DNA of 64,000 nucleotides. Origin: a virus. Positions 31,969 through 56,767 of this stretch are shown here, one piece after another (position 1 is the stretch's first letter; each line of letters opens with the position of its first letter). The position numbers and the translations under genes were made by a program. The stretch lies in the IMG/VR virus record IMGVR_UViG_3300047554_000685, positions 1 to 64,000 of that record, one strand, 5' to 3'. A model generated the notes under the pieces. The model was not told where the DNA came from. It ran no database searches and worked only from the letters and a program-made list of their open reading frames with translations.

Positions 31969-31969
31969 T

Positions 31970-32953: not shown

Positions 32954-33187
32954 TTAGCGGTAAGTCTTTGCTAGGCGGTATCCGTATGCCTTCACCGCGA
33001 GCGCGGTAATCACCGCAACCGCGCTAACCGCAAGAATAATCGGGTAAGCAACTTCACCGAATCGGCTTAGGTCATTAGCCATTGACAACCCGTAATAATC
33101 CGCGCTAACAAAAACGGCAACAGCAATCGCGCCATAAATAACCGCGCTAAGGGTTGCTTGCGCCTTCTCAAACTTTGTAATGTTCAT
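32954..33187 (-). CDS. small membrane protein
   Basis: Own promoter, GAAAGGGAAA RBS, terminator; 2 TM. Confidence 0.8.
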   Translation of the reverse strand: MNITKFEKAQATLSAVIYGAIAVAVFVSADYYGLSMANDLSRFGEVAYPIILAVSAVAVITALAVKAYGYRLAKTYR

Positions 33188-33343
33188 TTCATTTCCCTTT
33201 CGTTTTGCTAGGCGGTATCACCTAACACTTCTAATTTACCAACCCTAAACCATTTGTCAAGGGTTTCCGCAAACATTTTTTCGAGCGTGTCGCGGTAAAG
33301 AAAAACCCCTAGCCACAATCGGCTAGGGGCTTTCCGTAAGTTG

Positions 33344-33583
33344 TTAGAGACTTGTCTCAAACTTTTCTTCGGCAACCAAAACATCGTTTCCGTTTTCATC
33401 GCGGTAAGCGAATCCACGAACTACAACGCTAACGCCCGCGCGTGGTGTCGAGTAAAAGTCTACAATCGAGCGAAACTTTTCTTCGCCGTAAGTCTCATAG
33501 ACATAGGTCATTGTCTGGCCATCTTCGTAAGTAACTTCGGCTACGGTTGTTACGATGGTCTTTGTGGTGTCTACTACTAGCAT
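33344..33583 (-). CDS. hypothetical protein
   Basis: Own promoter, RBS and terminator. Confidence 0.8.
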   Translation of the reverse strand: MLVVDTTKTIVTTVAEVTYEDGQTMTYVYETYGEEKFRSIVDFYSTPRAGVSVVVRGFAYRDENGNDVLVAEEKFETSL

Positions 33584-33787
33584 TTCATTTCCCTTTCGTT
33601 TTCATAAACCTTTTGGCTTATGTAATAAGCATACTGTATCTAAGCAACTTGTCAAGTCAATTCCAAAACTTTTTTCCTGGCGCGTCGTTTCGATCAAAAT
33701 TGTTTGCCACCGCGAGCGCGTGTCCACCTAATCACCGCAAAAGAAAACCCCCATCCCTTTCGGGCTAGGGGCTTTCTCGCTTTCCCT

Positions 33788-34090
33788 TTACTTCGTGGTA
33801 AGGGTCAAAACATCGGTGAACTTCACCAAGGCTTCGTATGCTTCTGGGTAAGTTGCTTCGAACTCTTCCCAATCGTTTACCGAACGGCGAACACTCTCAA
33901 CAACTTCGGCGATTACTTCGCCAGTCTTTGGGTCTGCGATTACGGTTGCGGTGTTGCCAGTTTCTGCCAAGACAACTTTACGAATCGCGCTCTCGCGGTT
34001 TGCTAGGTCTGCCTTTGCCTTCTTCACATCAACCAATTCGGCGATTAGTGAAACTAGGTCTACTGCTACGGTTGCGGTCTTTGCGGTCAT
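33788..34090 (-). CDS. hypothetical coiled-coil protein, paralog of 39569..39868
   Basis: Shared 'IAEVVES.RRS.NDW..FEATYPEAYEALVKFTDVLTL'. Confidence 0.85.
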   Translation of the reverse strand: MTAKTATVAVDLVSLIAELVDVKKAKADLANRESAIRKVVLAETGNTATVIADPKTGEVIAEVVESVRRSVNDWEEFEATYPEAYEALVKFTDVLTLTTK

Positions 34091-34221
34091 TTCATTTCCC
34101 TTTCGTTTTTTGTATCTAAGCCTTTTGGCTTATGAAATAAGCATAAGCGGTATTTTTTCTTTTGTCAAGTCAATTCGAGAAAATTTTTATAACAGGTTTA
34201 TAACGGTAAATTGGCAGTCAA

Positions 34222-34560
34222 CCCGGCAGACTGCTAACCAACTTCCAACCAAGGCCGCGAGCGCGAGCTGCTTCTAACCCGGGTCTTTCCGGTTGCGAGC
34301 TGCTTCTGGTCCGGCAAACTTTCAACGAATAGCCCGGCTAGGTCCGGCAGGTAGCCCGGCGCGAGCTGCGCCTTTCCGGTATCAGTCCGGCCGATGAGCT
34401 GCCAACTTCCAACCAATTAGCCGCGTCAAGCTGCGAACAAACCCGGCTATTCCGGTGAACAACCCGGCTAGGTCCGGCGTATGAGCTGCTAACAAACCCG
34501 GCGCGAGCTGCCAAAAACTTCGGTCGATCGACCAACAAGCTGCGAGCAATTTCGATCAAA
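34222..34560. repeat. CCGG / AGCTGC-dense spacer
   Basis: 14 CCGG, 8 AGCTGC and 2 GATC in ~340 bp. Confidence 0.9.
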
Positions 34561-34626
34561 ATTAGAAACCGCGAGCGCGTAAAAAAGAAAACCCCCGCTT
34601 TCGCGAGGGCTTTCCATTTCTTCGGG

Positions 34627-34797
34627 CTAAAAGTTTTCGTTTACCCATTCGAGCATTTCTTCGTAGGTTGCGCCGTCAACATACATTTTGGCAAGGTCTT
34701 CGTTTTCTGCGAGCAACCAAGCGTCTACGGTTGTTTCTGCCGACAAGCGCATTAGCAAGTGTCGAACAGTGTTTGCGGTCTTTGCGTCTAGTGCCAT
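34627..34797 (-). CDS. 56-aa hypothetical protein
   Basis: Start MALDAK after GAAAGGGAAA RBS. Confidence 0.75.
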   Translation of the reverse strand: MALDAKTANTVRHLLMRLSAETTVDAWLLAENEDLAKMYVDGATYEEMLEWVNENF

Positions 34798-34909
34798 TTT
34801 GTTTCCCTTTCGTCTTTCGGCTTTCTGCCGATAAGTCAAGTATGGCAGACTTCCAACGAAAACACAACAACCGCCACATTGGGCGGTTGCGTGTCGCGAG
34901 CGTGTCGCG

Positions 34910-35335
34910 CTAGAACAAGTCTTCGTCTTCTTCTTCGGCAACTTCAAAAGTAAACTCACCAGTGCCAACTGGCTCATCGTGAGAGTAGCGAACAGCGGTA
35001 AGCGTCTTCGCGCCTTCTGTAATCTTGAACCTTAGTGTCCAATCGCCATTGATAGACAACTTCTCAACAAGCGTCTTCGGTGTCGCGTAAGCGTATCCGC
35101 TCAAGCGTTGCCAAGTCATTCCACTTCCGCGAATGATTAGGTTAGTGTCTTCATCGTAGCCATTGGCTTCCATCCAAGGCTTGATAACTTCATACCACAA
35201 GTTGCTAACTTCATCGTCATAGCAACCCCAACACTCATTGCTAGGCGATGACGTTTCAGTCTCTTCATCGTAGTCTTCGCAAATACAAGAATTGGTAATC
35301 TCGAATGTTTCGAATTCGGTTGATACAGTTTCCAT
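34910..35335 (-). CDS. acidic hypothetical protein with CxC/CxxC
   Basis: Own promoter and RBS. Confidence 0.8.
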   Translation of the reverse strand: METVSTEFETFEITNSCICEDYDEETETSSPSNECWGCYDDEVSNLWYEVIKPWMEANGYDEDTNLIIRGSGMTWQRLSGYAYATPKTLVEKLSINGDWTLRFKITEGAKTLTAVRYSHDEPVGTGEFTFEVAEEEDEDLF

Positions 35336-35581
35336 TTTGTTTCCCTTTCTTTATCGCCTTTCGGCTAATCCAAGTATCCCGCGTTTCTCATAAAAAGTCA
35401 AGCAACTTCCAACGAATGTTTTCGAGTTGCGAGCTGCGCGGATCGATCGACCATTGGCCAGGGCCGGTGCCGCGAGCGCGTTTTTGATCAAAATCCGCGA
35501 GCGCGAGCTTTCCGAATCTAGGCGTGATAAAAGGCCAGTTTAGAGACTTAGCCTAGGTCTTTTTTCGTAGGGAAACGAAAC

Positions 35582-35953
35582 TTAGTGAGAGTGTTCCATT
35601 GCTTTCAGAACAACTTCCATAATCTTATCAGTTTGTTCACTAGTGAGAGTTTCAATCTCACCATCGTAGTCTTCGCCACCAGTGATTAGAACATTGCCAA
35701 CGATGAAATCAGTCTGTCCGTATGAGTCTTCCCAAATAGCCGTAGCCAACTCATTTAGCGGAAGGTCTGAAAACTTACCTTCTTCGTTTAGCCACATTGA
35801 CAAGCCACTTAGTGAACCTGCCAACGGAACAACCTGAACCCAACCCCCAACGAATGTTTGTAAAAATTCGAGCGAGATTACTTCGTGAGTTTCGTCCCCA
35901 AAAACAAATCCGCCGTCTTCATTGGTGCGAATTGCGAATACCTTTGTAGTCAT
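35582..35953 (-). CDS. DUF3846-family protein
   Basis: 'LQTFVGGWVQ..MWLNEEGK..LPLNELAT..DFIVGNVLITG'. Confidence 0.8.
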   Translation of the reverse strand: MTTKVFAIRTNEDGGFVFGDETHEVISLEFLQTFVGGWVQVVPLAGSLSGLSMWLNEEGKFSDLPLNELATAIWEDSYGQTDFIVGNVLITGGEDYDGEIETLTSEQTDKIMEVVLKAMEHSH

Positions 35954-36166
35954 TTTGTTTCCCTTTCGTAAGTGCTAGAACCCCTAGCAATTTCTAGTTT
36001 AGCGTTTTGCGATAAAAAGTCAAATCAATTTCTTGACATCCATAGACAACCAACAGCTGCGAGCAATAGTAGTCCTGGCACGATCGAATTTGGATAACCA
36101 ATAGCGAAACCCATAATAAAAATAAAACCTAACCCAACGGCAAGGCCACGCCAAATAATCGCAAAC

Positions 36167-36713
36167 TCAGAATTGCGCCTTGACACTTTGCCACCACTTC
36201 CAAATCGCGGTTAGAGGCTTGCGCTCTTGACGACGGCGACCGTGGCGACCACCTTTGACATACGACTTATGCGCGAGCGTCTGCGTAACGTGAAAAGTCC
36301 GAAACGCTACTGAACCAATTGCGCGCCAAAACTTCTCCATAAAACGGTGATACCTAATCACGACTAACTCCACTTCCGAATTGTAATTGTGCGACCAACG
36401 AACTCAACATCCAACGCGATACCAGTTTCATTCACGACTTCAAATTCCATTCCGTCAAAAATTGAAAACAATTCTGGCTTTGCGTCATACTCCGCGAGCG
36501 CGCCAAACACTTCAAGCGCGGTCTTGCGTGCGTTCATAATTTCTTTGCGCCTTTGGTAGCGACTTACGCTTTCGAGATTACTGCCCATTTTTTTGCCCTT
36601 TCTTCTTTACACTCTACACAAATTTGACGGCTAGTGTAGGTGCCAATCCAAGCGACCCTAATCGCTTTACCACATTCCCAACAACCAATCCAAATCGTAT
36701 CTTGCTTTGACAT
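36167..36713 (-). CDS. three small coupled ORFs (36564-36713, 36364-36588, 36167-36373)
   Basis: Single promoter/RBS upstream of 36713; overlapping ORFs. Confidence 0.6.
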
Positions 36714-36896
36714 TTGGTTTCCCCTTTCTAGGTAATTCCAGATTAGCCTAGTTTGTATAATCGCGCAACAACCAAACTTCCGCGTGTCAAGCTTGACCGC
36801 GAGCGCGGATCGACCATCGATCAAAATCAGCTGCGACCGGCCAGGCTAGATAAAGAAAAAGGGTGACCACCGGCCACCCTATCTCCACGAATCTGA

Positions 36897-37484
36897 TTAC
36901 TTGAACATTCGTAATTGTTCAGCAAACCAATCGTCAAAATCTCCATCGCAACTTTCACACAACGGATGAACTTGACCAACGAATGCTTCAATCTCGGTTT
37001 CGCATTTGTAGCAAGTTGTAGTTTCTTTGGTTTCCATCGTTTCCCTTTCCACTTCCATTCTACAAGCCCAACTGAACTTTTGTGCCGAACTCTGTGATAA
37101 TTTCATCGAATCCATCTTGCTCAAGAACTTCAGCGAAATCCATTCCCGTATAGTCTTCGATGCGCTCAATCAAATCGGGCGACAGGTTATCTGTGTCAAG
37201 AACATAGACAGGGTGCTCATTGTGATACTGCCACCAATCACCATTTACATTCGCAACATACTTAGCCATTATGCGCTCCACGCTCCCCAATCCAAATCAC
37301 TTGCTTCACGCTGTGAATCTGACCAAGCGGTTTCTCCATAGAAATACTTGACCTTGCCACTTTCTTTGTTTGTCATACGCCAGTAGTCTTCTGCGAATAC
37401 TGCTGTGCCAGTTGCCAACTCCACGACTTTGCTATCGTAGATAACTTCCCAACTCTTTACTAATGAAACGCTAGGCTTTGCCAT
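36897..37484 (-). CDS. three small ORFs (37269-37484, 37060-37269, 36897-37037 with CxxC-CxxC)
   Basis: RBS GAAAGG before 37484 and 37037; coupled starts. Confidence 0.7.
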
Positions 37485-37773
37485 TGTCGTTTCTCCTTTC
37501 CCTATGCTCCAAGATTACACTAGTCCTGCGACAAACGCAAACAACTTCGAATGAATCCGCGAGCGCGTTTCGATCAAAATTAGCTGCGTCAAGCTCCGGT
37601 CCGGCCAGGGCAGCTCTGATCGATCACCGCGAGCGCGGCCATAATCCAGACAAAAGAAAAACGGTAGCAATTGGGGGGAATTGCTACCGCTCTCTTTGCG
37701 AAAGGTGAAAGGGGGATAACTCCTTTCGCTATTCCTTAGGCGAGTAATCTCGAGCCTAAGCAACTCTTCTAGT

Positions 37774-38121
37774 TTACACAGAATTGTCTTTCAGCGCAAA
37801 TTCTGTATTCACTTCACCTTGATACTCGTATTCGCCATTGTCTGCGTTTACGGTAATTGTGTCATTGTCCACCCAAGCAGAACCTTCTTCGTATCCATAG
37901 GCGTCGATACCGAAAGACAACTTACCTTCGTATCCACCGAGCGCGACCGCGAACTCATAGAAAATCTGCGCGGTGAGATAGTTCACATCGCCGATTCGGT
38001 CTGTGCGTGCGAGCACATTGCGAACTGCCACCAAGTTATCTCCACCCGACCAGTGTCCATAAAGTGTAATCGGCGCTTTGAAATTCTTGCTATTGATTAC
38101 GATTAGCGACCTGTCTCCCAT
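37774..38121 (-). CDS. hypothetical protein, 'MGDR...YGHWSG' family
   Basis: Similar N-terminal pattern to 40086..40610. Confidence 0.7.
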   Translation of the reverse strand: MGDRSLIVINSKNFKAPITLYGHWSGGDNLVAVRNVLARTDRIGDVNYLTAQIFYEFAVALGGYEGKLSFGIDAYGYEEGSAWVDNDTITVNADNGEYEYQGEVNTEFALKDNSV

Positions 38122-38330
38122 TATGCCACCGCCACCCATTTGACAGCGGTGCGTAGCAAGTTGTCATAATCGCCACTTGTGCTCTCGGCGTAGTATTCGT
38201 CAATTTCTTCTTTTGAAACTCCAGCGTCTTTCAGCGCGCTAGCAACACGACCCATAATCGCGAAAGCATTTCCATCTTCCCCGACCAACTGAACTTGAAC
38301 ATCTGGATACTTCGGCTCTCCAAAACTCAT
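38121..38330 (-). CDS. conserved phage hypothetical ('GEDGNAFAIMG...SGDYDNLL')
   Basis: Recognisable motif; own promoter. Confidence 0.8.
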   Translation of the reverse strand: MSFGEPKYPDVQVQLVGEDGNAFAIMGRVASALKDAGVSKEEIDEYYAESTSGDYDNLLRTAVKWVAVA

Positions 38331-38489
38331 TTTTCTTTCCCTACTTTCCTAGGCAATTTGCCTAATACAAAGATACTGTATTTTGCTTTTTAGCGCAACT
38401 TCAAACGAACACTAATTTTGTGTCTTGTGATCGATCGACCAGGGCGACTGGTTTCGATCCGCGAGCGCGGCCGTAGCCGAGCTCACCCC

Positions 38490-38885
38490 CTAGTCTTCGT
38501 CTTCTTCGTCTTCGTCTTCGTAGTCATTACAAACACCAGCGCAACCGCGCTCACCACAATCTTCGCAATCTTCTTCTTCGAATTGCCCGATTAGAGTTTC
38601 GAAACCTTCGTTAGCATCCACACCTTCTGGCATAGTAGAGACCGCGCTCACAAAACGTAGCCCACAACTTTCTTCATACCAGTGCTTGACTTTCTCCAAC
38701 ATCTTGTCCGCGCTCATTGCGTATTTGGTGATAAGACCTTCTGTATCAGTCCCATCCCCATAGCCATACTCGCGCATAAGCGAGACTTGCTCATCGTCCA
38801 TAAGCACGTAAATCTTGTGGCAAGTGTCCCAAGCAATCGCCTTGGCGTCTACCAATCGTTCTTCAACCAAATCAAAGTTTGTCAT
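38490..38885 (-). CDS. acidic hypothetical protein with C-terminal Cys cluster
   Basis: Own promoter and RBS. Confidence 0.8.
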   Translation of the reverse strand: MTNFDLVEERLVDAKAIAWDTCHKIYVLMDDEQVSLMREYGYGDGTDTEGLITKYAMSADKMLEKVKHWYEESCGLRFVSAVSTMPEGVDANEGFETLIGQFEEEDCEDCGERGCAGVCNDYEDEDEEDED

Positions 38886-38980
38886 TTCATTTCCCTTTCT
38901 TTTTAGGCTTTTTGCCTACCTAAAAGATACCGCATTTTAGGACAACACGCAACATCCAACGAACATTTTTTTTCGTGTCT

Positions 38981-39155
38981 TGATCGATCGACCAGCTCCC
39001 AAGTCATCTAACTTCCAACGAATTAGTTGCGGCTTGTTAGATCTGGATCACCGGTAATCACCTGGCTAGATCTCCCTGGTCCGGCCCCGGCGATCAGATC
39101 AATCTAAGCTGCGTGATCAGCTGCGCCATAGATCTAGATCAGCTCCGGTCCGGGT
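38981..39155. repeat. GATC-dense spacer
   Basis: 10 GATC, 5 CCGG, 4 AGCT, 2 CCTGG in ~175 bp. Confidence 0.9.
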
Positions 39156-39194
39156 AAAAAGAAACCCTGGCCGAAGCCAGGGCTCTTTGTATGA

Positions 39195-39251
39195 CTACCG
39201 GTTTGGGCAGTCTCCATGGTCATGGCCACAGCATGGAAAGTCTTCGCACAT
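39195..39251 (-). CDS. 18-aa Cys/His micropeptide MCEDFPCCGHDHGDCPNR
   Basis: Between TTGACA-17-TAAGTT promoter (39284-39312) with purine-rich RBS and terminator 39157-39187. Confidence 0.55.
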   Translation of the reverse strand: MCEDFPCCGHDHGDCPNR

Positions 39252-39568
39252 CTTGCACCCCCTATCTCCCTTTCTAACTCCAAACTTACCACCCAACCCA
39301 AAACGTGTCAAGTCTATTTTGATAACAGATTGATAACACTCGCGAGCTGCTTCGAGCTGCGACTGAGCTGCGCCAGCTCCGGTAAAACTTCCAACGAGCT
39401 GCGACTAAGCTGCAATGCCAGCTGCTGCGATTCGCTTCATAACTTCTAACGAACAACCACACCCATTCGATCCGGCTCCGGTCCAGGCAAGCCCGGCGGA
39501 TCGACCAACAACCGAGCAAGACGAAACCCCCCAGTCTTTCGACTGAGGGGGCTTGCGACCTCCCGACC

Positions 39569-39868
39569 CTACTTCTTTTTGAGAGTGTTGAGGGTTAGAA
39601 CATCAGTGAACTTGACCAGTGCCTCATAAGCCTCTGGATAGGTTGCCTCAAAGTCGTCCCAATCGTTGATTGAGCGACGGGTGCTTTCCACGACCTCGGC
39701 GATAATCACGCCAGCCTTGTCAGCAATCTCAACAGCAGTGTTGCCAGTCGCTCCAAGAACCGACTTGCGAATTACGCTCTCACGAGCAGATAGTTCAGCC
39801 TTTGCTTCACGAACCTCAATGAGTTCGTCAATCAGGGCTACAACATCAACGACAACAGCCTTAGCCAT
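39569..39868 (-). CDS. paralog of 33788..34090
   Basis: Direct protein similarity; GAAAGGA RBS. Confidence 0.85.
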   Translation of the reverse strand: MAKAVVVDVVALIDELIEVREAKAELSARESVIRKSVLGATGNTAVEIADKAGVIIAEVVESTRRSINDWDDFEATYPEAYEALVKFTDVLTLNTLKKK

Positions 39869-40085
39869 TTTCGTCCTTTCCCTAGAAATCAAGCCAACCT
39901 TGTGTTCGCTTGTAATACCAAGCCTAGTCTGCTACTTTTCGCAAGTCAAGCCCAAACAGCATTATTTTTATAACAGGTTTATAACGGAAATTTTTAATCT
40001 GATCGATCAGCTGCAACCAGCGATCGCCAGGATCTCGGGCAAAAGAAAACCCCCACATTTCTGCGGGGGCAATCTTTTGTAGCGA

Positions 40086-40610
40086 CTAGACGCGAGACTC
40101 GCTTGAGTTGTAGCAACCCTTCACAAACTCTTCGTTCGTGCTTGGAAAGTTGTAGAGGTCAAACTCGGCACAAGGTTCGGCTGACCCAGCGTAAACCTTG
40201 AGAGTGTGAACATCAAGGTCAATCACATAAGCCCACTCGCAAAACAAAGTGTCCTGCAAGAATGCCATTTCGTTGACCAATGGCACACGCTCGGTTGCGT
40301 TGGCGACTAGTTCCAAAATCTCGGCGCAAGTGTCGCGAGAGAGACTTGGATAGGCTTCGCCAAATGCTTGACCTTGCTCCATAGTCATCCAACCATCTTC
40401 GTTCGAATACTTCGAGTAGATAGCCTTGAGTTCGTTTTCATCTGCCCAGTAAGCCTTGTCCAAGTTTGCTTCGAGTTTCGCAACTCCAGCGTGCTTGACA
40501 AATTCATAGACAGTAGTTCCCTGACCTTCAGGGTATCCATCCCATTGGCCATACTGCGCGATTACAGGTTCGCCATTTTTGATAACGGCGGTAAGGTTTC
40601 GAGTTCCCAT
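40086..40610 (-). CDS. conserved phage hypothetical ('MGTR...YGQWDGYP...EWAYVIDLD')
   Basis: RBS GAAAGGGAAA; recognisable motif. Confidence 0.8.
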   Translation of the reverse strand: MGTRNLTAVIKNGEPVIAQYGQWDGYPEGQGTTVYEFVKHAGVAKLEANLDKAYWADENELKAIYSKYSNEDGWMTMEQGQAFGEAYPSLSRDTCAEILELVANATERVPLVNEMAFLQDTLFCEWAYVIDLDVHTLKVYAGSAEPCAEFDLYNFPSTNEEFVKGCYNSSESRV

Positions 40611-40793
40611 TGTTTCCCTTTCAGTAGCCACCTTGACTACATCTAAATTATTGCATAGACCTGCGACATTTTGCAACAACCAACCAAGGTTTTTTTCAGC
40701 TGCGTCCGGCACGATCGCGAGCTTGATCGATCAGACCTGGCAGAAGAAAACCCCGCGGGCTGCGAGAGCTGCGGGGTTGACTTCGAACGAATA

Positions 40794-41024
40794 CTAGTTA
40801 GGTGAGCCAGTGAACTTTTCCACGAAAGCATTCACCTGCGGGGCAAAGGTAAAAACCAAAGCCACGACAATTCCAATCAGAACTCCATTCTGAAAAGTTT
40901 CGGTAATGGTTTGATTACTCTCGCCACCAGCCAGCAACATCAACAGATAGAAAAAGCACCAAGCACCAGCCACGAATGGAATTGAGATAATTCCAACGAT
41001 TGCTCTGCGAATGTAAAACTTCAT
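40794..41024 (-). CDS. small 2-TM membrane protein
   Basis: Hydrophobic helices; own promoter. Confidence 0.75.
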   Translation of the reverse strand: MKFYIRRAIVGIISIPFVAGAWCFFYLLMLLAGGESNQTITETFQNGVLIGIVVALVFTFAPQVNAFVEKFTGSPN

Positions 41025-41216
41025 TTTTCCCTACTTTCCGTAGCAACTTGCTACATAACTAATTTACCATCAACTGATAAAAAAGCAAGAACCAACGAAG
41101 AAAACTTTCCACGAACTCGAGATCTTCCGGCCTTGGTGATCGATCTAAGCTGCAGCTCTCAACCACCGGCCAAAAGAAAACGCCCACTCTCGCGAGTGAG
41201 CGTTCCCTGTTTGCGA

Positions 41217-41453
41217 TTACTCGCTTTGGCTTGGCATTTTCTTAGTTGCCAATTCCATTAGGTAAGCAATGACTTCCATTACTTGACCCAACTTGTCCCA
41301 GTCATGGGCTTTGGCAAGTTGCTCGGCATACTCAGACATAACTGCGCTTGCCCTTACCAAAGGTTCTACTGCGTCAATGATTTCGTTTGACTTGGTTAGC
41401 GTTGCGTCAAGTTCTGCCAACGCGGTGTCTAGCGGTGTGTTCATGTTTCCCAT
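41217..41453 (-). CDS. hypothetical protein
   Basis: Own promoter and terminator. Confidence 0.65.
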   Translation of the reverse strand: MGNMNTPLDTALAELDATLTKSNEIIDAVEPLVRASAVMSEYAEQLAKAHDWDKLGQVMEVIAYLMELATKKMPSQSE

Positions 41454-41575
41454 TCTGTTGGATACTTTCCAACTAGTTCAAATGTAGCATAGACGACTGA
41501 CATTTTGCGACAAGTTTGAAAACTTTTTTCGGGCCGGTGATCGCCAGGCGGATCGATCCGGCGAGCGCCGCGCCC

Positions 41576-41794
41576 CTAGTCTTTTGCTAGACGCTTCGTG
41601 TTCAAAAGGTCTAACGCATCTAGATAGTATTTCCTATCGTCATCTTCAATCCACTCGTTTGCGTCTGTGTCCCAAACTTGCTCATCTTCACTAAACCGCG
41701 CCGAATAAGTATCATCTGCGATAAAAACTTCTTTGTCATCTAAATCAACGCCAATGACAAAAAATACCTGCTTGCTCAATCTATTTCCTCTCAA
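41576..41794 (-). CDS. acidic hypothetical protein
   Basis: Downstream of HicA-like gene; start may be ~41779. Confidence 0.6.
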   Translation of the reverse strand: MRGNRLSKQVFFVIGVDLDDKEVFIADDTYSARFSEDEQVWDTDANEWIEDDDRKYYLDALDLLNTKRLAKD

Positions 41795-41987
41795 TCGTGA
41801 TTCCGTGTCGGCGAAGTTCCGACACTAGGTTTTTGACGGCACGCCCGTCTGACGGCGTAGACGCGGAAAAAACTATTTGCCCACTTGGCGAAGTCCACTT
41901 CAAGTGTCCACCACCAGTTAGAGTAACGACCCAGCCCTTAGACTCGGCGACCTTGACTATCTGCTTGAATTCTTTTCTGTTCGACAT
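41781..41987 (-). CDS. HicA-like dsRBD-fold protein (leaderless)
   Basis: 'GWVVTLTGGGHLKWTSPSG..VFSASTPSD.RAVKN...LRRHGI'. Confidence 0.75.
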   Translation of the reverse strand: MSNRKEFKQIVKVAESKGWVVTLTGGGHLKWTSPSGQIVFSASTPSDGRAVKNLVSELRRHGITIERK

Positions 41988-42153
41988 ACTTCAAATGTAG
42001 CACCACCCACTGACATTTTCAACGACACGCCTAAAACTTTTTTCGAGCTTCGATCCCTGCAGCTTACCACCGGCACCACCGCGGATCGACCAACGCCTGG
42101 AAATAAGTGGCGAGCAGTTTTACAACTTGCTCAGGTTGGGTGTGGCTTCGAGG

Positions 42154-42543
42154 CTAAACGAGTTCGTCCTCAGGCTCAGCCTCGCGAACCAAGACCGTAC
42201 GAGTGAAAACCGAAGTTCCCCAAGTCAAGTCATGCCCCATTGAAGTCGCCTCAACCTCAACCGAGGTTCCCGAACGCTCACCGTTATCCCAATCGCGAAC
42301 GCGAAGTGTGCCAGTGACGGTGATACGGTCGCCCTTGTTCACCGAGCCAGCGACATTGATAGCAAGTTGCTTGAACGCGGTAATGGTGAACCAGTTGGTC
42401 TCACCGTCTACCCACTTGTTTTGCTCGCGGTCAAACTTGCGGTATGAACTTGCGAGACGGAATGAAGTAATCGGCAGGCCGTCCTGAGTTACGAGGTGGC
42501 GAGGTGTTGTGGCAACTAGGCCAGTGACAGATACAGTTTCCAT
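42154..42543 (-). CDS. ssb: single-stranded DNA-binding protein
   Basis: 'ITSFRLAS..R.FDR...WVDGETNWFTIT.F..LA.NV..S..KGD.I.V.G.L..R.W', actinobacterial-type SSB. Confidence 0.92.
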   Translation of the reverse strand: METVSVTGLVATTPRHLVTQDGLPITSFRLASSYRKFDREQNKWVDGETNWFTITAFKQLAINVAGSVNKGDRITVTGTLRVRDWDNGERSGTSVEVEATSMGHDLTWGTSVFTRTVLVREAEPEDELV

Positions 42544-42778
42544 TGTTTCCCTTTGATAGTTTCCAAGTGAACTTTTGTCCACCCTTGGATTTTAGCATAG
42601 CGAGCCGACATTACGCAACTTCCCACGAGAGCCTTTTTTCGTTGGAAGTTCCGACGGTAGCCCCCGCCTGGATCGACCAAACCGCGAGCGCGAAATCCAT
42701 TGATCCGGTTCAGCTGCAACCACGCCAAACAAGAAACCCCCGCCCGACGGCGAGGGTTCTTGCTTTTTAGGGAAACGA

Positions 42779-43252
42779 CTACCAACTGGATTGGTATTCG
42801 AAATCGTAATCCTTCAGACTTTCCGAAGTCAAAAGGTGGTTCAGCATTTCGGCGGTGTACTTCACGCCTTCGTAGTACCACTCATCAAGGTCAGTACTTC
42901 CGAAGAAGAAACCACTCTGTGGTGGTAGCAACTCATCAGCCTTCGTGGCATCAGCCAATACAGTCTGGCACGCCTCAAGAAGTTCAGCCAGTTGCTCACG
43001 AGATACCCAAGCCTTCTGGCACTCATCACGACCACCCTGAACATTCTGAACAAACCAGTTGTGAATGGCGTTCGCCTTGCGCCAGTACCCCACGCTAATT
43101 TCAATGGTGGCACTTGGGTTGCCATACTCCAAGTCTGACTTGGTCAAGCCACTAGCAGATAGCACTTCAGCGTACGCCTGCTTCTCTGGCTCTTTGTTGA
43201 AATCGTAGCCACTCACATACTTGCGAGCAGATAGATACATATCTAGTCCCAT
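42779..43252 (-). CDS. conserved phage hypothetical ('MGLDMYL...YWRKANAIHNWF...YQSSW')
   Basis: Recognisable widespread phage family. Confidence 0.85.
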   Translation of the reverse strand: MGLDMYLSARKYVSGYDFNKEPEKQAYAEVLSASGLTKSDLEYGNPSATIEISVGYWRKANAIHNWFVQNVQGGRDECQKAWVSREQLAELLEACQTVLADATKADELLPPQSGFFFGSTDLDEWYYEGVKYTAEMLNHLLTSESLKDYDFEYQSSW

Positions 43253-43327
43253 TGGACTTCCCTTTCCCTACGCCCTACTCTTTTTCAGGCACGCCACCAG
43301 TTTACACTAAGTCAGCAAAAATACAAA

Positions 43328-43630
43328 CTATTTGGCGAAAGTTTTTTGACCTAGATCGACCAGCAGCTCCTCAACAGTATCTGGAATCTGATACCCACCA
43401 ACCAAGATCCCGGCACGAATAATCATTTCTCCGGTGCTAAGTGATAGAGCTGCGGCCCAGGACGATACAACTTCGGAAGAAGCTTCTTTCTGTCCACGCT
43501 CAAGCTCACTAAGGTATCCGAGTGCCATCTTCGCACTAGCTGCAACTTGGCGTAGAGTCAAGCCTTGATCGATCCGTTCCTCGCGAGCAATGTGTCCAAG
43601 GGCTTCGCGGTAAAGAATTTCATTTTTCAT
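43328..43630 (-). CDS. XRE-family HTH regulator, ClgR-like (leaderless)
   Basis: 'TLRQVAASAKMALGYLSELERGQKEASSE'; TTGACG-17-TACGCT promoter 6 nt before ATG 43630. Confidence 0.85.
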   Translation of the reverse strand: MKNEILYREALGHIAREERIDQGLTLRQVAASAKMALGYLSELERGQKEASSEVVSSWAAALSLSTGEMIIRAGILVGGYQIPDTVEELLVDLGQKTFAK

Positions 43631-43716
43631 ACGATCAGCGTAGTGCACGCACGCCTATCCGTCAAACAAAAAACACCAGCAGCTCTCTCGCTACTGGTGC
43701 TTTCTGTCCGTTAGGG

Positions 43717-44574
43717 CTAGGCAACCTCGGTCAAGGTTGGATAGACACGCACGCCGTCTTCTTCAACCCACGCCACGCTATCCTCACTAATCCGCACGCC
43801 GTTTGGTTGTTCGGCATTAGTGAAGTTTTCCAGCACGCCGTTCGCAATCTCCCACGCCGATTCAGCCGACTTCGCCGTAATCCGAATTACTTGCCGAACT
43901 ACAACCTCGAACTCCTTTTCGGGACGAGGGCAGTCGTCATACCAATACTCGTCGTCGTCAGGGTCGCTCGCACAATTACAGGAATCTTCCCTGTCCCTGT
44001 CCACATAATCTTGGTGGCTGTCGGGGATGTCCCATTCCTTAGTCATAATCAAGGAACGCTCGCCCTCCTCGTCGCCGTCCGAAGAAGTGAACTCCGCACC
44101 CCAGCCCTGCTCTTCCTCACTCCAAAAGTCGAAGTCCAGCGTTGGGAACTTCCGAACAATCGCATTGAAGACTGGCTCGGGAATACTCCACGCCGTATTG
44201 AACGAATAGCCCAGCGAGGTTTCGCTGTCGTCATTCAAGTCAGCGTCGCAAGCGTCCCACTTAGTTCCCCACTCACGAACATTCCAGTCATACCAACCAT
44301 TCGACGAGAACTTCATTGAGTAAGCGAGTTGTTCCTCTGAAGTCATTTTGTCGTAGCCCTCTGGCTTGTAGTCGCTTGCCCCGAAGTAGAGTGCCTTGTC
44401 CTCTGGCTCAACAAAATTCCAGAACGAGAACACCTCCTCCTTGTCGTCGTAAGTTAGCGAACCAGTTTGGCTGTCGAATCCAGTTGGTGCTTTTCGTCCT
44501 GCCAGTTCCTTGAACTCAGCAATCTTTTCCTTTGAACCTGAAACGCTCAGGGTGTTGTAAACCCAGTTTGGCAT
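43717..44574 (-). CDS. DUF1281 / YubB ferredoxin-like domain protein
   Basis: 'MPNWVYN', 'WYDWN..EWGTKWD', 'FNTAWS.P'. Confidence 0.8.
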   Translation of the reverse strand: MPNWVYNTLSVSGSKEKIAEFKELAGRKAPTGFDSQTGSLTYDDKEEVFSFWNFVEPEDKALYFGASDYKPEGYDKMTSEEQLAYSMKFSSNGWYDWNVREWGTKWDACDADLNDDSETSLGYSFNTAWSIPEPVFNAIVRKFPTLDFDFWSEEEQGWGAEFTSSDGDEEGERSLIMTKEWDIPDSHQDYVDRDREDSCNCASDPDDDEYWYDDCPRPEKEFEVVVRQVIRITAKSAESAWEIANGVLENFTNAEQPNGVRISEDSVAWVEEDGVRVYPTLTEVA

Positions 44575-44576
44575 TT

Positions 44577-44864
44577 TTAGTTCTCCTCTCCAGTTAGGTT
44601 GTGTTCCTCAATCAAGTTGTCAATGGTTAGACCAGCGTGAATCTTCACGCTCTCTAGGTGAATGGTTAGTTCTTCGTTTCCAAACTTGCGTGCCAGCATA
44701 CAAGCAAGTTCCAACGAACGATACATCAGTGGGTCAGCGTATCCTTGCTCGCAGTAGTTCTCGACAAGAACACCAAGAGCAGTCAAGGCGATACCAGCAA
44801 TCTGGTGGTCGTCCAAGTCCATACCCTCGATTTGGTTTTCTAGGTTTTCGCAGTTATCGCACAT
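44577..44864 (-). CDS. hypothetical protein
   Basis: GAAAGGGAAA RBS before ATG 44864. Confidence 0.7.
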   Translation of the reverse strand: MCDNCENLENQIEGMDLDDHQIAGIALTALGVLVENYCEQGYADPLMYRSLELACMLARKFGNEELTIHLESVKIHAGLTIDNLIEEHNLTGEEN

Positions 44865-44987
44865 TGGTCGTTTCCCTTTCTCTAGCGATAATTCGATTGT
44901 AGCAGAGTATTGCGACAAAACAAACACATTCATTGGAAGTTTCGTGGCAGCTTTCGCCAGGTCCGGCGCAGCTTGTGATCGATCGAT

Positions 44988-45257
44988 CTAGTCTTCTTGG
45001 TCAAAAGCTTCTCGGCGAACTTGGTTCATCTCGAGATCGTCTTCGATACATAGGCAGGTATCACATAGGAAATACCCCAAGTAGTTGTAGTTCCAGTGAG
45101 TAACAACGGCCGCGCAATCTACGCACCGGACTGATTCCCCGGGCGCACCGCAGACGTGGATAGTGTCATCATTTTCGATCCCGTAGAACAACTCAACGAA
45201 ATCATCTTCATTCAGTTCTTCATTCATGATCCCTAGCGTATCCGCTAACCCTGACAT
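44988..45257 (-). CDS. acidic Cys-rich hypothetical protein
   Basis: ORF track; CxxC pairs. Confidence 0.5.
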   Translation of the reverse strand: MSGLADTLGIMNEELNEDDFVELFYGIENDDTIHVCGAPGESVRCVDCAAVVTHWNYNYLGYFLCDTCLCIEDDLEMNQVRREAFDQED

Positions 45258-45440
45258 TTCCCGGGCGATCGATCAGCAGCTTTTCTCGCGCACGCCAGCA
45301 CGCCACCGTCAGTCCGGGCAAAACGAAATCCCTACCAGCGGGGGAACTGATAGGGATTTCTAATCCGTTAGCGGAGAGCGATTTTGGAAAGGGGGAAACG
45401 AGTTTGCTCAATCCGCTAACGGACTTCTTAGGCACGCCGA

Positions 45441-47231
45441 TTACACGCCACCCCCGATTTTCGCGAGAGCGTCAGACGCAGACTTGCCGATTGAGAGCGC
45501 GATACTTTCGACTTCCATTCCGTCAAGGTGAACCGCGTGAGTTCCGCGCACAATCTCTTGCGCGCCGATTGAGTGGCACGCCTTTGGCGTAATGAACAGA
45601 ACAGCCACGCCAGCCAGTTCGCACTCTTTGATAATCCGCTTTGCGTTTTCGGTTTCTTTCGAAACATAGTTTCCGTCCGATACAACAACCAACAAACGCA
45701 CGCCGTCCGAGTAAGTCAGACCGAGCGCGCCATTGAGAGCCGAGAACCCCTTGTCAAAAACTTCGGTGCTATCTGGCGCAGACCAGACCGAAACTTCTTC
45801 CAATTTCTGCCCGACTTTGAGTGTCGCGAAAACATCTTCACCGAAATAGACCATAGCGGTTTTCGCCTGAACCCTACGACCAGCCTCGCTAAGAACCCAA
45901 GCAGTTGTCGCCATAGCGTCCATAGCCGAACCCATAGAACCACTAATGTCCACCATTACGCCAATGGTCAGCGTTGGGTCGTCAGTGTGTTTGCGCGACT
46001 TTGACTTCCAAGCAGGGAGTTCGCCACGCAATCCCATTGACTTCATAGCACTATTCTGAACAGCGTTGCGAGTGTTGAGTTTGCCAAGTGGCGCGTGAGT
46101 TTTGCGAATGTGAACTGAACGCTCACGATACTTCGCCTTGTCCAACATCTCAGCAATCTTGACAGCACTCGCGCGCTCACCAGATTTTGGCGCACGCTTT
46201 TCGCGAAGTGAAGAACGCGACTTAGTTCCAGTAGAACCCTCTTCGCGCTTTTCGAAAACGACCTCTGAAACTTTGCGCTCTTCGCTCTTCTTCTTACTCT
46301 GGTCAGCGCGACCCTTTGCCTCTTCTGCCCACTCTTCGCCAGTCTGTTGGTCAGTCAAGTCAATCGAAACAGCAATCGCAGTTCCACCAGCGTCCTCTTC
46401 CAAGTCCTCTTTGGTCGCGAGAACAAAAGCAATTCCAGCACCCTCGCCACTCTCGCCCTCTGGGTCAGCCTCGCGCAAAATCTCAACCCACTCGCGAGCC
46501 AAGTCAAGACCAGCGACAGTCGCGCCATTCGCGAGCGCGTGGAAACGCACCCAGACAGAACGCAACTTGTCAAACAACTCTTGACCAAGAACATCAAGCG
46601 CACGCTCATAAATCTTTTCGACATCTGCCAGACCAAGAACGCCAGCGTCCACGCGAGCGAGAGCAAGTCCAGCCATTTGCGCCATTACGCGAACCTCGCT
46701 CACCTTTGCCAATCCCTCTTCGTCAATCTCACCAAGAGCAAGACCAAGAGCAGACGCACGCAGGAAGAGCCTATTCTTTGGGTAAATCAAAACGCCAATG
46801 CGCTCAATGCGACTTTCTTCTAGCAACCAAAAAGCGTCAAGAACATTTTGGTTTCCAGCCTTATGCTCAACTTCGAAGAGCGAGTAATCCCACTTGTCAG
46901 AAGAGCGAGCGTGAAGAGCCTCGTGATAAATCACGCCAGTTGGTTCTGCCCAATCGTATTGAGTTTCGCGAAGTGTGAAGTCGCCAACCATTTCTGGCGT
47001 GGTCGCGTTTCCAAACGCACCAGCCAAGTTGATTTCGATTTCAGCAGTAGAGCCAATAAAGCAAGCAATCGCTTGACCCATACCAGCGTCCTCACCAGCA
47101 TAGACAGCCAAGTCATTACGACCAGCCCAATCATTCGCGACCTTGCCAATCTGGGCGCAGGTTGCCAACCATTCCGAGGGAGTGAAACTAGCGCGAGTTG
47201 CGAGGCGCGAGTTAGGTGTGAAGTGTGTCAT
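45441..47231 (-). CDS. VWA-domain protein with HExxH motif (CobT/MoxR partner-like)
   Basis: 'YHEALH', 'LEESRIE', MIDAS 'VDISGSM', 'VVVSDG'. Confidence 0.85.
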   Translation of the reverse strand: MTHFTPNSRLATRASFTPSEWLATCAQIGKVANDWAGRNDLAVYAGEDAGMGQAIACFIGSTAEIEINLAGAFGNATTPEMVGDFTLRETQYDWAEPTGVIYHEALHARSSDKWDYSLFEVEHKAGNQNVLDAFWLLEESRIERIGVLIYPKNRLFLRASALGLALGEIDEEGLAKVSEVRVMAQMAGLALARVDAGVLGLADVEKIYERALDVLGQELFDKLRSVWVRFHALANGATVAGLDLAREWVEILREADPEGESGEGAGIAFVLATKEDLEEDAGGTAIAVSIDLTDQQTGEEWAEEAKGRADQSKKKSEERKVSEVVFEKREEGSTGTKSRSSLREKRAPKSGERASAVKIAEMLDKAKYRERSVHIRKTHAPLGKLNTRNAVQNSAMKSMGLRGELPAWKSKSRKHTDDPTLTIGVMVDISGSMGSAMDAMATTAWVLSEAGRRVQAKTAMVYFGEDVFATLKVGQKLEEVSVWSAPDSTEVFDKGFSALNGALGLTYSDGVRLLVVVSDGNYVSKETENAKRIIKECELAGVAVLFITPKACHSIGAQEIVRGTHAVHLDGMEVESIALSIGKSASDALAKIGGGV

Positions 47232-47474
47232 TTCCAGTCCTTTCCAAAACTGATTACCTATCTAGGATAGCACTTTTCGATTGTCGCGCAACCCCCATTC
47301 GCAGAAAAAATCCAGTGATCCTGGCGCAGCTATTTCCGGCCATAAGTTCCCGGGAGCTTTTCCCGGGCAGTGATCGATCAGTGGCAAAGCTGCAGACGAT
47401 CGAAACGCACTATCCCCGAAAAAGCAAAAGTGCCAGATTTCTCTGGCACTTCGCTTTTCAGTTTCGGACGGAAA

Positions 47475-48491
47475 CTAAATCTTCGCAGGACGACATTCTT
47501 CACCAAAGACGCGAGTGAAAACATCTGCCACAACTGGGCGGTCAAGTTCTGGCGCACTCGCGAGCAAGTTTGAGATTGCGAACTTAGTTCCAAACACTTC
47601 GCTGATTGACTTGTATGCCAACAGTTCGCGCATTTGTGGCGACCAAGAAGTTTCGCCATTCGCTTGCTTTTTCGCGAGGTTCTGGGCAACTGAAACAGCA
47701 GACGCAGGAACGCCCAACTTCTTTGCCAATGCCCAGTCAGTAGTCATTTCTGCCTGAATGGAAAAGCGTGAGAGCAACGCCTCGCTTAGGCGAACTCCGG
47801 GCGCATTGGGGTTTGTCGCGCCAATCACATAAAAGCCGTCCTTTGCTTTTACAGTTCCGCGCTCTGGGTTCGCAGTGATTACGATTTCTTTGCGTCCGTC
47901 CATAAGACCATAGACAGCCGAAAGAACCTTTGGGTCAATCAGACCAATCTCGTCAATCAAAAGAACTTTGCCCTCTTCGGCAGACTTGACCAAAACGCCG
48001 TCCACCCATTCGAAAGCACCACTTGGAGTTTGGACATAGCCACCAATGAAGTCCGAAAGTTCGGTGTCGCCTGAACCCAAGATTGTGTAAAGTTCATCTG
48101 GGAACGCGCCCTCAACGAGAGCAGTTTTGCCAGTTCCGGGCGCACCATACAAAAGGACATACTGATTGTTTGAGCGTGCTTTGCGAAGAACCTCGACATC
48201 TGAATGGTCGCCCCAAGAGCGAGAGAAATAAAAGTCGCCATTCGGACGCTGATACTTCTCAGCACCCTCAATAGTTTCTACGCTCACAGTTGCCTTTGCC
48301 TTTGGTTTTGGAGTTCCAGTTCCAATCTTAGCGCGAAGATTTGCGCGTCCACTTTTCGGCATTAGCGAAGATAGACCAGCAGGAACTTTGGTTTCATCTT
48401 CACCCTGAACAGCAACGCCGAAAATTAGCGAGGTGAGTTCTGGGTAAATTGCGTCCACGACTTCTTCGTGGGTTTTGGTTTCGATAGTCAT
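47475..48491 (-). CDS. MoxR/CbbQ/CobS-type AAA+ ATPase
   Basis: 'GAPGTGKT', 'LLIDEI', 'ATNP', 'EALLSRF', 'QMREL'. Confidence 0.9.
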   Translation of the reverse strand: MTIETKTHEEVVDAIYPELTSLIFGVAVQGEDETKVPAGLSSLMPKSGRANLRAKIGTGTPKPKAKATVSVETIEGAEKYQRPNGDFYFSRSWGDHSDVEVLRKARSNNQYVLLYGAPGTGKTALVEGAFPDELYTILGSGDTELSDFIGGYVQTPSGAFEWVDGVLVKSAEEGKVLLIDEIGLIDPKVLSAVYGLMDGRKEIVITANPERGTVKAKDGFYVIGATNPNAPGVRLSEALLSRFSIQAEMTTDWALAKKLGVPASAVSVAQNLAKKQANGETSWSPQMRELLAYKSISEVFGTKFAISNLLASAPELDRPVVADVFTRVFGEECRPAKI

Positions 48492-48518
48492 TTTAGTTTT
48501 CCGTCCTTTTCGATTTCC

Positions 48519-49025
48519 CTAGTAAAGGTTTTCTGGGTAGCCAACTTCGGCGCGCGCTTTGGTAATTCGGCGCAACGCAGACGCAGGTGCTTTCCAAGCA
48601 CTAATGTCAGTGAAATCAACATCAGTTAGTTCGAACACGATTGGTCGTGGTCGTGGTGTAAATCCCTCTGGGAACATACGCGCAGTGATTTCGCTCGCAC
48701 GCGAACCAAGTTCGACAGCCTTGTCAATAGGCGACATAGCGTCAAACTCTTTCGGAGTGCGAACAAAGTTAGTGCGCCATTGAGCGCGAGGTGTGAAACT
48801 ACTAATGGTGCGATAGATAACAGCCATACTTACGACTTCGCCCTTTTCGTTTTTACCACTTGGGGTAATCAGAACTTGGGTGGTTCGTGCGTATGAGTTA
48901 GTTGCGTGCGCCTCTAAATAAATGCCCATTCCCATTAGGCGAGGCTTGTTGCTTACCTCTTCGTGCGAAGTGGCAAGTGCGTCAGCAATTTCGGAAGATA
49001 CTTCCCCGAATGTTGTTGGGTTCAC
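48519..49025 (-). CDS. hypothetical protein
   Basis: GTG start after GGAAAGG; upstream of AAA gene. Confidence 0.7.
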   Translation of the reverse strand: MNPTTFGEVSSEIADALATSHEEVSNKPRLMGMGIYLEAHATNSYARTTQVLITPSGKNEKGEVVSMAVIYRTISSFTPRAQWRTNFVRTPKEFDAMSPIDKAVELGSRASEITARMFPEGFTPRPRPIVFELTDVDFTDISAWKAPASALRRITKARAEVGYPENLY

Positions 49026-49153
49026 TTTCGTGCCTTTCCAATTAGTTGAGTGTCGTTTTCCCGACAAGAGCAACTTTACACGAAGTCGCGACAAAAGCGC
49101 AACTCTTCCAACAAAGATTTTTTATTTATTTTTCCCGGGCGATCGATCAGCAG

Positions 49154-52515: not shown

Positions 52516-52533
52516 GAGTGAATTATATCTCAT

Positions 52534-56758: not shown

Positions 56759-56767
56759 GTTTAAACC

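Follow-up and report, generated by a model that had tools for sequence, protein, structure and literature searches.

The stretch at 34222-34560 is a signal in the DNA itself, neither a gene nor a structured RNA, in which short words recur on an 11-bp lattice between the terminator of one early phage gene and the promoter of the next. The words are of the kind read by restriction and modification enzymes, and the sites themselves appear to have been selected. We tentatively interpret the gap as an island, upstream of an early promoter, at which site-specific DNA enzymes would act in methylation or modification, a reading that is possible and that is weighed below against its alternatives. New here are the 11-bp lattice, natural length alleles that preserve its phase, the contrast between words and linkers, the confinement of words to the predicted-untranscribed gap, and a three-state comparison of relatives that includes a second packed lineage.

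Position, word content and lattice of the array

The window, meaning the whole 64-kb stretch of DNA that was analysed, comprises the initial 64 kb of an IMG/VR virus contig that is 79 kb long and has an estimated completeness of 47%. Structural genes in the window are siphovirus-type (tape measure, major head protein, portal and large terminase), and the large terminase is best matched by that of the freshwater 'Actinomycetia phage DSL-LC01' (74% aa), with further matches in large Microbacterium, Gordonia and Arthrobacter phages. Near-identical DNA is found in runs from seven freshwater or aquatic metagenome studies. The stretch itself lies on contigs from four public freshwater runs of four studies, one with 0 differences and the other three with 9-18 differences over 2.5-7.3 kb; these are assembled contigs only, with no RNA run among those listed, and an assembly artefact is excluded because contigs of four independent runs carry the stretch. 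Array identity across the four studies, from 2019 to 2025, is at least 99%. Searching the phage collection by megablast with 33500-35500 yielded no match.

On the minus strand the order of elements is a 56-aa gene, terminator, CGCGCTCGCGG, array, TTATAAC pair, promoter, leader with ribosome-binding site (RBS) and a 100-aa gene. The features are listed here by coordinate:

32954..49130, minus strand: early domain of about 25 single-gene transcription units purged of 4-bp palindromes, with word-rich gaps between them
33788..34090, minus strand: downstream early gene, 100 aa, with RBS GAAAGGGAAA in its leader; no known family
34140..34168, minus strand: predicted early promoter, TTGACA, 17-bp spacer, TATGCT (10/12 consensus matches)
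34188..34208, minus strand: direct repeat of TTATAAC, two copies with 11-bp spacing, immediately upstream of the -35 hexamer
34222..34560, no strand assigned: word array of 31 modules of about 11 bp, defined by counts, lattice and phasing
34519..34562, no strand assigned: terminator-proximal end of the gap, with TCGATCGA and TCGATC (GATC-type) words
34569..34579, minus strand: post-terminator boundary word CGCGCTCGCGG, with 13 copies in the contig, all in one orientation
34586..34615, minus strand: strong intrinsic terminator of the upstream early unit, a 13-pair stem followed by a T-run
34627..34797, minus strand: upstream early gene, 56 aa from a start codon with a canonical RBS

A second copy of CGCGCTCGCGG lies inside the array at 34255-34265. 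The TTATAAC pair resembles an UP element or an operator, and a comparable pair is present upstream of the promoter in the gap at 39869-40085. No plus-strand promoter reading into the array was found. For the downstream gene (33788..34090), tblastn against phage records returned no match and a look-up in the ESM Atlas returned unnamed viral clusters only.

The initial annotation had described the stretch as a non-coding sponge of sites and named two findings that would refute this idea, a translated peptide or a structured RNA that explains the words; both were looked for, and neither accounts for them. Rfam and tRNA scans of the array found nothing, and RNA folding was poorer than that of shuffled sequence on both strands (z = +1.68 and +1.21). 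The periodicity of the array is 11.0 bp and a 3-base periodicity is absent. The minus strand has mechanical ORFs of 60 and 73 aa, none with an RBS typical of the early genes. The rationale for regarding the stretch as a signal at the level of DNA is thus its position between a terminator and a promoter, the lack of any Rfam or tRNA match, its poor folding and the absence of a 3-base period.

Recounting the words reproduced exactly the 14 CCGG and 8 AGCTGC sites that had been reported (CCGG starts at 34223, 34279, 34289, 34311, 34334, 34344, 34356, 34376, 34387, 34443, 34452, 34464, 34474 and 34498; AGCTGC starts at 34266, 34298, 34364, 34397, 34429, 34484, 34506 and 34538). The reported single orientation of AGCTGC also holds, its reverse complement GCAGCT occurring 0 times on that strand within 34222-34560. 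Site density is as extreme as had been claimed: CCGG occurs 131 times in the whole 64-kb window, or about 0.7 per 340 bp, and the stretch is the top 340-bp window for CCGG and joint top for AGCTGC/GCAGCT. It had further been described as something other than a simple tandem duplication, in agreement with Tandem Repeats Finder, which gives just a 21-bp unit repeated twice (34435-34477). The accompanying claim that a single 16-mer recurs was, however, too narrow, and several repeat families of 15-32 nt are present: a 22-mer pair (91% identity), a 19-mer family (95%), a second 22-mer pair (86%), and the exact repeats CCAACTTCCAACCAA (twice at 100%) and CCGCGAGCGCG (twice). These families do not form a CRISPR array, in which near-identical repeats of 23-55 bp would alternate with unique spacers, the longest being 15-32 nt with 63-100% identity and irregular spacing. 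A minisatellite would repeat one unit with copies at least about 70% alike, whereas the 31 modules share length and word class and not sequence.

Inspection of word positions reveals a lattice of 10.9-11.0 bp that runs through all 31 modules in one orientation. The Rayleigh R at 10.9 bp is 0.98 for AGCTGC and 0.90 for CCGG, values reached by 0 of 5000 random placements, and the Fourier peak of the GC indicator lies at 11.0 bp, the strongest 10-11.5-bp GC periodicity among 339-bp windows of the 64 kb. Successive AGCTGC starts are separated by 32, 66, 33, 32, 55, 22 and 32 bp, with CCGG on the same grid. When the array is written in rows of 11 bp, nearly all 31 rows start with AGCTGC, CCCGGC, TCCGGY or TCCAAC, which in transcription sense (minus strand) read GCAGCT, GCCGGG, RCCGGA or GTTGGA/GTTGAA. 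A CNGC core is common to 19 of the 31 rows, and the flanks of the words are otherwise free and barely conserved. The words are presented on the same face of the helix, with one helical turn per module. Across the lineage the orientation bias is GCAGCT:AGCTGC 29:10 and CCGGA:TCCGG 25:1, and the spacing of GCAGCT in other gaps and in relatives is also in multiples of about 10.7 bp. The words are also suggestively in phase with the -35 hexamer (R = 0.55), but this value was set aside as evidence, since orthologous gaps and within-array coherence inflate it. When viral contigs were screened for sets of three GCAGCT words separated by 4-6 bp, most hits were coding repeats of 12 bp, and non-coding phased arrays turned up only in L070 and L080, which are unrelated phages. 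A Chi-like reading of the oriented words was dropped, the two boundary words being different and not a mirrored pair.

The purged early domain, its relatives and the growth of the array

The array is the largest of about 20 gaps that share one vocabulary within a 16-kb early domain, in which each early gene has its own promoter and terminator. Read in transcription sense, the gap words are CGCGCTCGCGG, GATCGATC, CCGG(G/A), CCWGG, GCAGCT and GTTCGTTGGAAGTT. The genes between the gaps are nearly free of such sites. Over 26 early ORFs (9,420 bp) the observed/expected counts are 0/36 for GATC, 0/36 for AGCT, 1/32 for CCGG, 0/16 for CCWGG and 0/16 for GCWGC, and they are similarly low for TGCA (1/36), CATG (2/36), ACGT (4/36), GGCC (4/32), GTAC (6/36), TTAA (0/40), ATAT (1/40) and TATA (1/40). 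Eleven strand-symmetric 4-mers have an observed/expected ratio below 0.2, and all are palindromes; no 3-mer is depleted in the early genes, and GpC[C/T] was accordingly rejected as a hidden target. The late genes show no purge (GATC 137/120, AGCT 228/120). Borders of the purged block are sharp, near 32.95 and 49.13 kb: eight palindromes (GTAC, ACGT, CATG, TGCA, TTAA, ATAT, TATA and GGCC) occur at 0-6 per kb in most 1-kb bins of the domain and at 9-15 per kb in three of its bins, against about 23 per kb outside it. An XRE-type HTH gene lies within the domain at 43328-43648.

The purge spans entire transcription units. Across nine gaps in which the promoter is clear, 72 class II words fall in 1,160 bp of predicted-untranscribed gap, versus 3 in 989 bp of promoter, leader and terminator, and words are allowed solely between the T-run of a terminator and the next -35 hexamer. 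The palindromes divide into two classes. Class I (GTAC, ACGT, CATG, TTAA, ATAT, TATA and partly TGCA) is absent from the gaps as well, whereas class II (GATC, AGCT, CCGG, CCWGG and GCWGC) is 2-4 times over composition there, and the same partition is found in three close relatives.

How did the array reach its present length? The orthologous gap upstream of the same gene was compared in three related contigs, where it aligns well at both ends and lacks its middle. In net length, one relative differs by 121 bp (11 x 11) and the other by 143-146 bp (13 x 11); the indels are 121, 130, 143 and 10 bp, none a multiple of 3, and the 143-bp-shorter form accompanies the long form as a minor variant within one lake sample. 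These whole-module length differences, together with the internal repeats, show clearly that module duplication or unequal crossing-over built the array. Between these two genes, relatives also carry one or two additional cassettes, joined at CGCGCTCGCGG, and a co-occurring strain shows several cassette-sized skips. The initial annotation had proposed selection for site density rather than slippage. The first part stands, in that the words are conserved, are purged from the surrounding units and recur in a second lineage; the second part does not, given the whole-module differences and the internal segmental repeats.

Evidence for selection on the words comes from BLAST alignments of the whole early region with three relatives, in which mismatches amount to 8-11% in words, 20-24% in linkers and 11-14% in genes, so that word positions change 2-3 times less than linkers, although alignment of repetitive DNA tends to pair word with word and may lower the apparent word rate. 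The suggestion that the sites themselves matter is based on this conservation together with the restricted vocabulary, the exclusion of the words from transcription units and the recurrence of their cores in the second lineage.

That lineage was found through the AAA ATPase gene that heads the domain; this gene has 178 relatives in IMG/VR, indicating a large phage group that is widespread in freshwater. The 10 kb downstream of the ATPase exists in three states: unpurged (P0), purged with clean gaps (P1) and purged with packed gaps (P2). Clean gaps hold a conserved AT-rich box, TGTATTTATTTTTTCT, instead of words, and they are common, so packed gaps are not required for an early region of this type; clean-gap and packed-gap relatives form a natural comparison for testing. 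In the ATPase tree, packed gaps occupy two or more well-separated places, one formed by this clade and L136/L137 and another by L157 and L165, with L159 in addition, and recombination could be the route of their spread. The second packed lineage has the cores GATC, AGCT and CCGG in free and quite different flanks, with no lattice and no orientation bias (GCAGCT:AGCTGC 2:5 and 0:3; CCGGA:TCCGG 3:5 and 11:11). Since the same cores recur there without lattice or orientation, the common, selected feature is presumably the palindromic core. The lattice and orientation are specific to the present lineage and may largely be explained by growth through module duplication. Two named phages were rejected as models: DSL-LC01, the nearest named relative by terminase, has an unpurged small-gene region (GATC 216 versus 76 expected), and Big4 has a different layout.

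Readings of the word array

Genes that could act on such words lie outside the window, in a modification cluster at roughly 69-72 kb of the contig. A C5-cytosine methylase is encoded there in two overlapping ORFs, the first with motifs I-VIII and the second with a long variable region and motifs IX-X; the gene is either split or frameshifted. A reading of four L-x-T-P motifs of the variable region as four target-recognition domains was dropped as evidence. The cluster further encodes an HNH nuclease and a glycosyltransferase, along with a small 2OG-Fe(II) oxygenase that matches Tet_JBP weakly, and at 51-62 kb there are another two 2OG oxygenases and a pair of GT61 glycosyltransferases. This split methylase also occurs in the sister packed-gap lineage L136/L137. 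Methylase presence nevertheless fails to separate the packed from the clean state: G004, of the second packed lineage (94% complete, packed gaps rich in AGCT, CCGG and GATC), has only a Dam-type methylase and no C5 enzyme, the complete clean-gap relatives G013 and G015 carry methylases, and the complete G014 carries none.

How could so many sites be harmless to the phage that carries them? Modification in the virion is the simplest way, and for this reason the reading as an enzyme island is ranked first. We hypothesize that the words are docking sites, chiefly for DNA methyltransferases and for modification enzymes acting after them; the candidates would be the phage split C5 methylase with the neighbouring TET-like oxygenase and glycosyltransferase, or methylases of the host. 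On entry into the cell, the gap would then present many closely packed modified sites directly upstream of the early promoter, and modification would explain how a domain otherwise cleared of every restriction-type palindrome can tolerate these five words. Such a patch could mark or insulate the promoter, for instance with respect to parental versus newly replicated DNA, like the GATC clusters upstream of Mu mom. The 11-bp lattice and single orientation would probably derive from duplication of one-turn modules, and binding along one helix face may help to maintain them. The island reading is consistent with the placement of the array between terminator and promoter with no plus-strand promoter, with the lower mismatch rate of words than of linkers, with the modification genes on the same contig and the split methylase shared with L136/L137, and with a vocabulary in which five class II words are confined to gaps and other palindromes excluded, as expected if some words are protected and the rest are not; the lattice and whole-module indels were also counted in its favor. 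However, phage methylases of such clusters characterized to date prefer GpC[C/T] and not the five words (PMC8256090), the phage gene is split or frameshifted, and two complete clean-gap relatives also have a methylase. A version that relies on the phage methylase alone meets a counterexample in G004, with its packed gaps and Dam only. Safe protection of the words would also call for another explanation of why transcription units have lost them entirely, and an 11-bp lattice has no obvious use in a methylation island. The lattice would be better accounted for by a cooperative regulator or architectural protein, phage-encoded or virion-borne, that polymerizes on one face of the 31-turn array, and such a lattice might act as an operator or insulator for the downstream promoter, comparable to ParR on the 11-bp iterons of R1 parC, or to phi29 p6 or SPO1 TF1 at early promoters; we consider both the polymerizing protein and its role at the promoter somewhat unlikely. 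The strictness of the 10.9-11-bp spacing, the orientation bias, the multiples of about 10.7 bp for GCAGCT elsewhere, the moderate (and inflated) phasing with -35, the length changes that keep phase, the CNGC core in 19 of 31 modules and the XRE-type HTH gene in the domain all speak for such a protein. Its recognition would nonetheless have to be very loose, or several proteins would be needed, to cover at least four word types on the lattice and five words in the gaps with barely conserved flanks; moreover, the second lineage shares cores and not an oriented iteron, and a candidate binding protein linked to the arrays is absent.

A further hypothesis is that the gaps are decoys, or sacrificial cut zones, to which host restriction enzymes would be drawn and where alone they would cut or be held, so that about 25 site-free mini-genes stay expressible and anti-defence proteins accumulate in a domain that tolerates fragmentation. 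The canonical Type II nature of the words and their conservation argue for this, as do site-free units from promoter to terminator beside packed gaps, a promoter and terminator for every gene, and the presence of the same cores in two lineages with different methylase sets. A pure decoy mechanism is doubtful, however, and we rate the reading as unlikely, because cuts in the gaps still break the genome, because first-entering sites of the T5 type correlate with restriction sensitivity and not with protection (PMC10644984), and because clean gaps would be at least as safe and are common among relatives. Judged from T5, bait sites on the same molecule should cost the phage; the other common sites GTAC, CATG, ACGT and TTAA are not used as bait, neither a helical lattice nor a single orientation is needed, and the domain would have to enter first or lie in a terminal repeat. 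A literature search found no precedent for a restriction decoy or cut zone. The array could instead be a by-product of cassette shuffling, made of junction debris and slippage with little function beyond microhomology for cassette gain and loss. Extra cassettes with a junction at CGCGCTCGCGG, the skips in the co-occurring strain, and the whole-module differences with internal repeats would all follow, yet the by-product reading is improbable given words that are 2-3 times better conserved than linkers, a 2-4 times enrichment of just five words with other palindromes excluded, and an array at least 99% identical in the four studies, dated from 2019 to 2025. Phased short direct repeats, which the 10.9-bp lattice provides in the manner of an iteron origin, are also typical of replication origins, packaging (pac) sites and partition centromeres, and methylatable word clusters occur in P1 pac and Vibrio oriCII. 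Such a function is very unlikely here: about 20 gaps with the same vocabulary leave no unique site, no initiator, ParM/ParR or TubZ-type partner is seen adjacent, where the genes fall in no known family, and the central 121-143 bp are missing in relatives. Hardly credible at all is a structured RNA or small repetitive peptide behind the words, for which the 60- and 73-aa minus-strand ORFs might be cited; in addition to the Rfam, tRNA, folding and positional results, the period is 11 and not 3, the indels are not multiples of 3, and the array is full of words that all real early genes lack.

The consequences differ with the reading. As methylation or hypermodification islands, the gaps would assign a biological role to the post-replicative methylase/TET/glycosyltransferase systems and provide a natural map of their targets. 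As sinks or cut zones for restriction enzymes, they would represent a new anti-defence principle encoded in DNA and not in protein; a lightning rod of this kind would be a previously undescribed DNA-encoded protection against restriction. As regulator lattices, they would reveal a new operator grammar for the early genes of widespread freshwater phages.

Comparison with known systems

Clusters of C5-methylase, TET and glycosyltransferase genes carry out sequence-specific post-replicative hypermodification (PMC8256090; bioRxiv 10.1101/2023.12.21.572611; PMC13229309). The corresponding gene set, with a TET-like oxygenase, is also on this contig; the difference lies in the GpC[C/T] preference of the characterized enzymes, and a link from such a cluster to an island of target sites has not been described. 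In the promoter-early stem-loop (PeSL) cassettes of T4-type phages, stereotyped regulatory junctions with promoter and hairpin lie between small early genes and accompany cassette gain and loss. CGCGCTCGCGG likewise marks the junction of cassette gain and loss here, but PeSL lack arrays of restriction-type words.

Clustered non-coding words whose methylation is read by a protein are known from the Mu mom GATC sites (OxyR) and the P1 pac GATC hexamers. The likeness consists in several methylatable 4-bp words clustered in non-coding DNA by a promoter, whereas those systems have 3-7 sites of one word and the array has at least 22 sites of several words over 31 turns, in a genome with about 20 such gaps. 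One-turn short direct repeats beside a promoter, coated cooperatively on one face, are found in R1 parC/ParR, the omega-heptad system and TubR/tubC. The array shares the 11-bp spacing and adjacent promoter of parC, but parC has ten near-identical 11-mers with a parM-parR operon, unlike an array of four word types and free linkers that has many counterparts per genome; no partition genes were seen near the array.

In T5 and BF23, restriction acts only via sites in the first-transferred block (PMC10644984), and the T5 pre-early block includes large non-coding repeat regions (bioRxiv 10.1101/866236). In the assembled contigs analysed here, the likeness to the first-step-transfer (FST) region of T5/BF23 is that site depletion is confined to a bounded early block, which spans 32.95-49.13 kb in the present phage and in T5 holds early genes whose survival is required until anti-restriction is established. 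The T5 block differs in having no known site-rich gaps, in that its sites are harmful and in that its repeats are DnaA boxes and palindromes at one place, and the phage studied here is related to actinophages. Removal of restriction sites from first-exposed DNA is known in phages; here five such words are also concentrated, under apparent purifying selection, only where no transcription unit is interrupted.

Composition of the early block

About 25 early units, each with a single gene, make up a 16-kb block (window positions 32954-49130) from which four-base-pair palindromes are almost absent, as are GCNGC, CCWGG and GGWCC. The borders of this purged block are sharp, and in the late genes flanking it on both sides the frequencies of the same words are normal or raised. 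Two ORFs within the block are not purged:

43328-43648: XRE-type HTH protein (Pfam HTH_3)
44988-45257: Cys-rich ORF of 89 aa

Both contain GATC, CCGG and GCAGCT and both are missing the usual RBS, and they may belong to a different expression regime.

Word arrays in other gaps and in other phages

A second large composite gap, at 38886-39568, consists of two halves divided by a tiny promoter-terminator unit. One half is rich in GATC/AGATCT, with 10 GATC in ~160 bp and no phasing of the GATC words, and the other is rich in GCAGCT, with a word spacing of 10-12 bp. In L141 and L138, relatives whose gaps are clean of restriction-type words, a conserved box, TGTATTTATTTTTTCT, is found in every gap, ~60-70 bp upstream of the promoter, the position occupied here by the word arrays. 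Non-coding word arrays were also observed in two unrelated phage contigs (L080, 3290-3440; L070, around 4409-4436), built either from (C)GCAGCT words at intervals of 9-12 bp or from four 11-bp AGCTGCTGGTT units, and promoter-like DNA adjoins them.

Repeats at terminators and near the terminase-side genes

Downstream of many terminators lies the word CGCGCTCGCGG, present in 13 copies between window positions 32820 and 42692 (for example, 34569-34579). Its orientation is always the sense of transcription (13 versus 0 in this contig; 22 versus 0 in three relatives). Relatives carry an extra cassette that is missing here, and because its junction falls exactly at CGCGCTCGCGG, the word has the look of a site where cassettes end or recombine. 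A different repeat, ATAGACGCCCCTAC, occurs five times on the minus strand at window positions 31553-32273 with 0-2 mismatches, its copies spaced about 100-315 bp apart within and adjoining the 1.1-kb non-coding stretch that leads from the last early unit to the terminase-side genes. These repeats could represent a late-control or packaging element.

Modification-type genes and the head of the early domain

Modification-type genes are found in two settings:

Contig 68978-72170 (4978-8170 of L012, the same contig beyond the window): oxygenase, glycosyltransferase, HNH nuclease and C5-cytosine methylase
Window 51165-52533, 55409-57778 and 60793-61803: two adjacent 2OG-Fe(II) oxygenases, a HAD-hydrolase fusion and two GT61 glycosyltransferases

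The 2OG-Fe(II) oxygenase of the first cluster is small, and its Tet_JBP match is weak. The methylase is encoded by two overlapping ORFs, one of 188 aa with motifs I-VIII and one of 320 aa with motifs IX-X at its end; in the viral genomes G001 and G003, the first half runs on through a TGA. The genes of the second group may serve DNA modification or virion glycosylation.

Two genes head the early domain:

47475-48491: AAA_5 ATPase
45441-47231: 596-aa protein, labelled VWA in the initial annotation

The 596-aa protein has no Pfam match. The ATPase is conserved across 178 viral contigs, and in the Actinomycetia phage DSL-LC01, the nearest named relative by terminase, adjacent genes are annotated as a 'cobalamin biosynthesis protein' and an AAA family ATPase.
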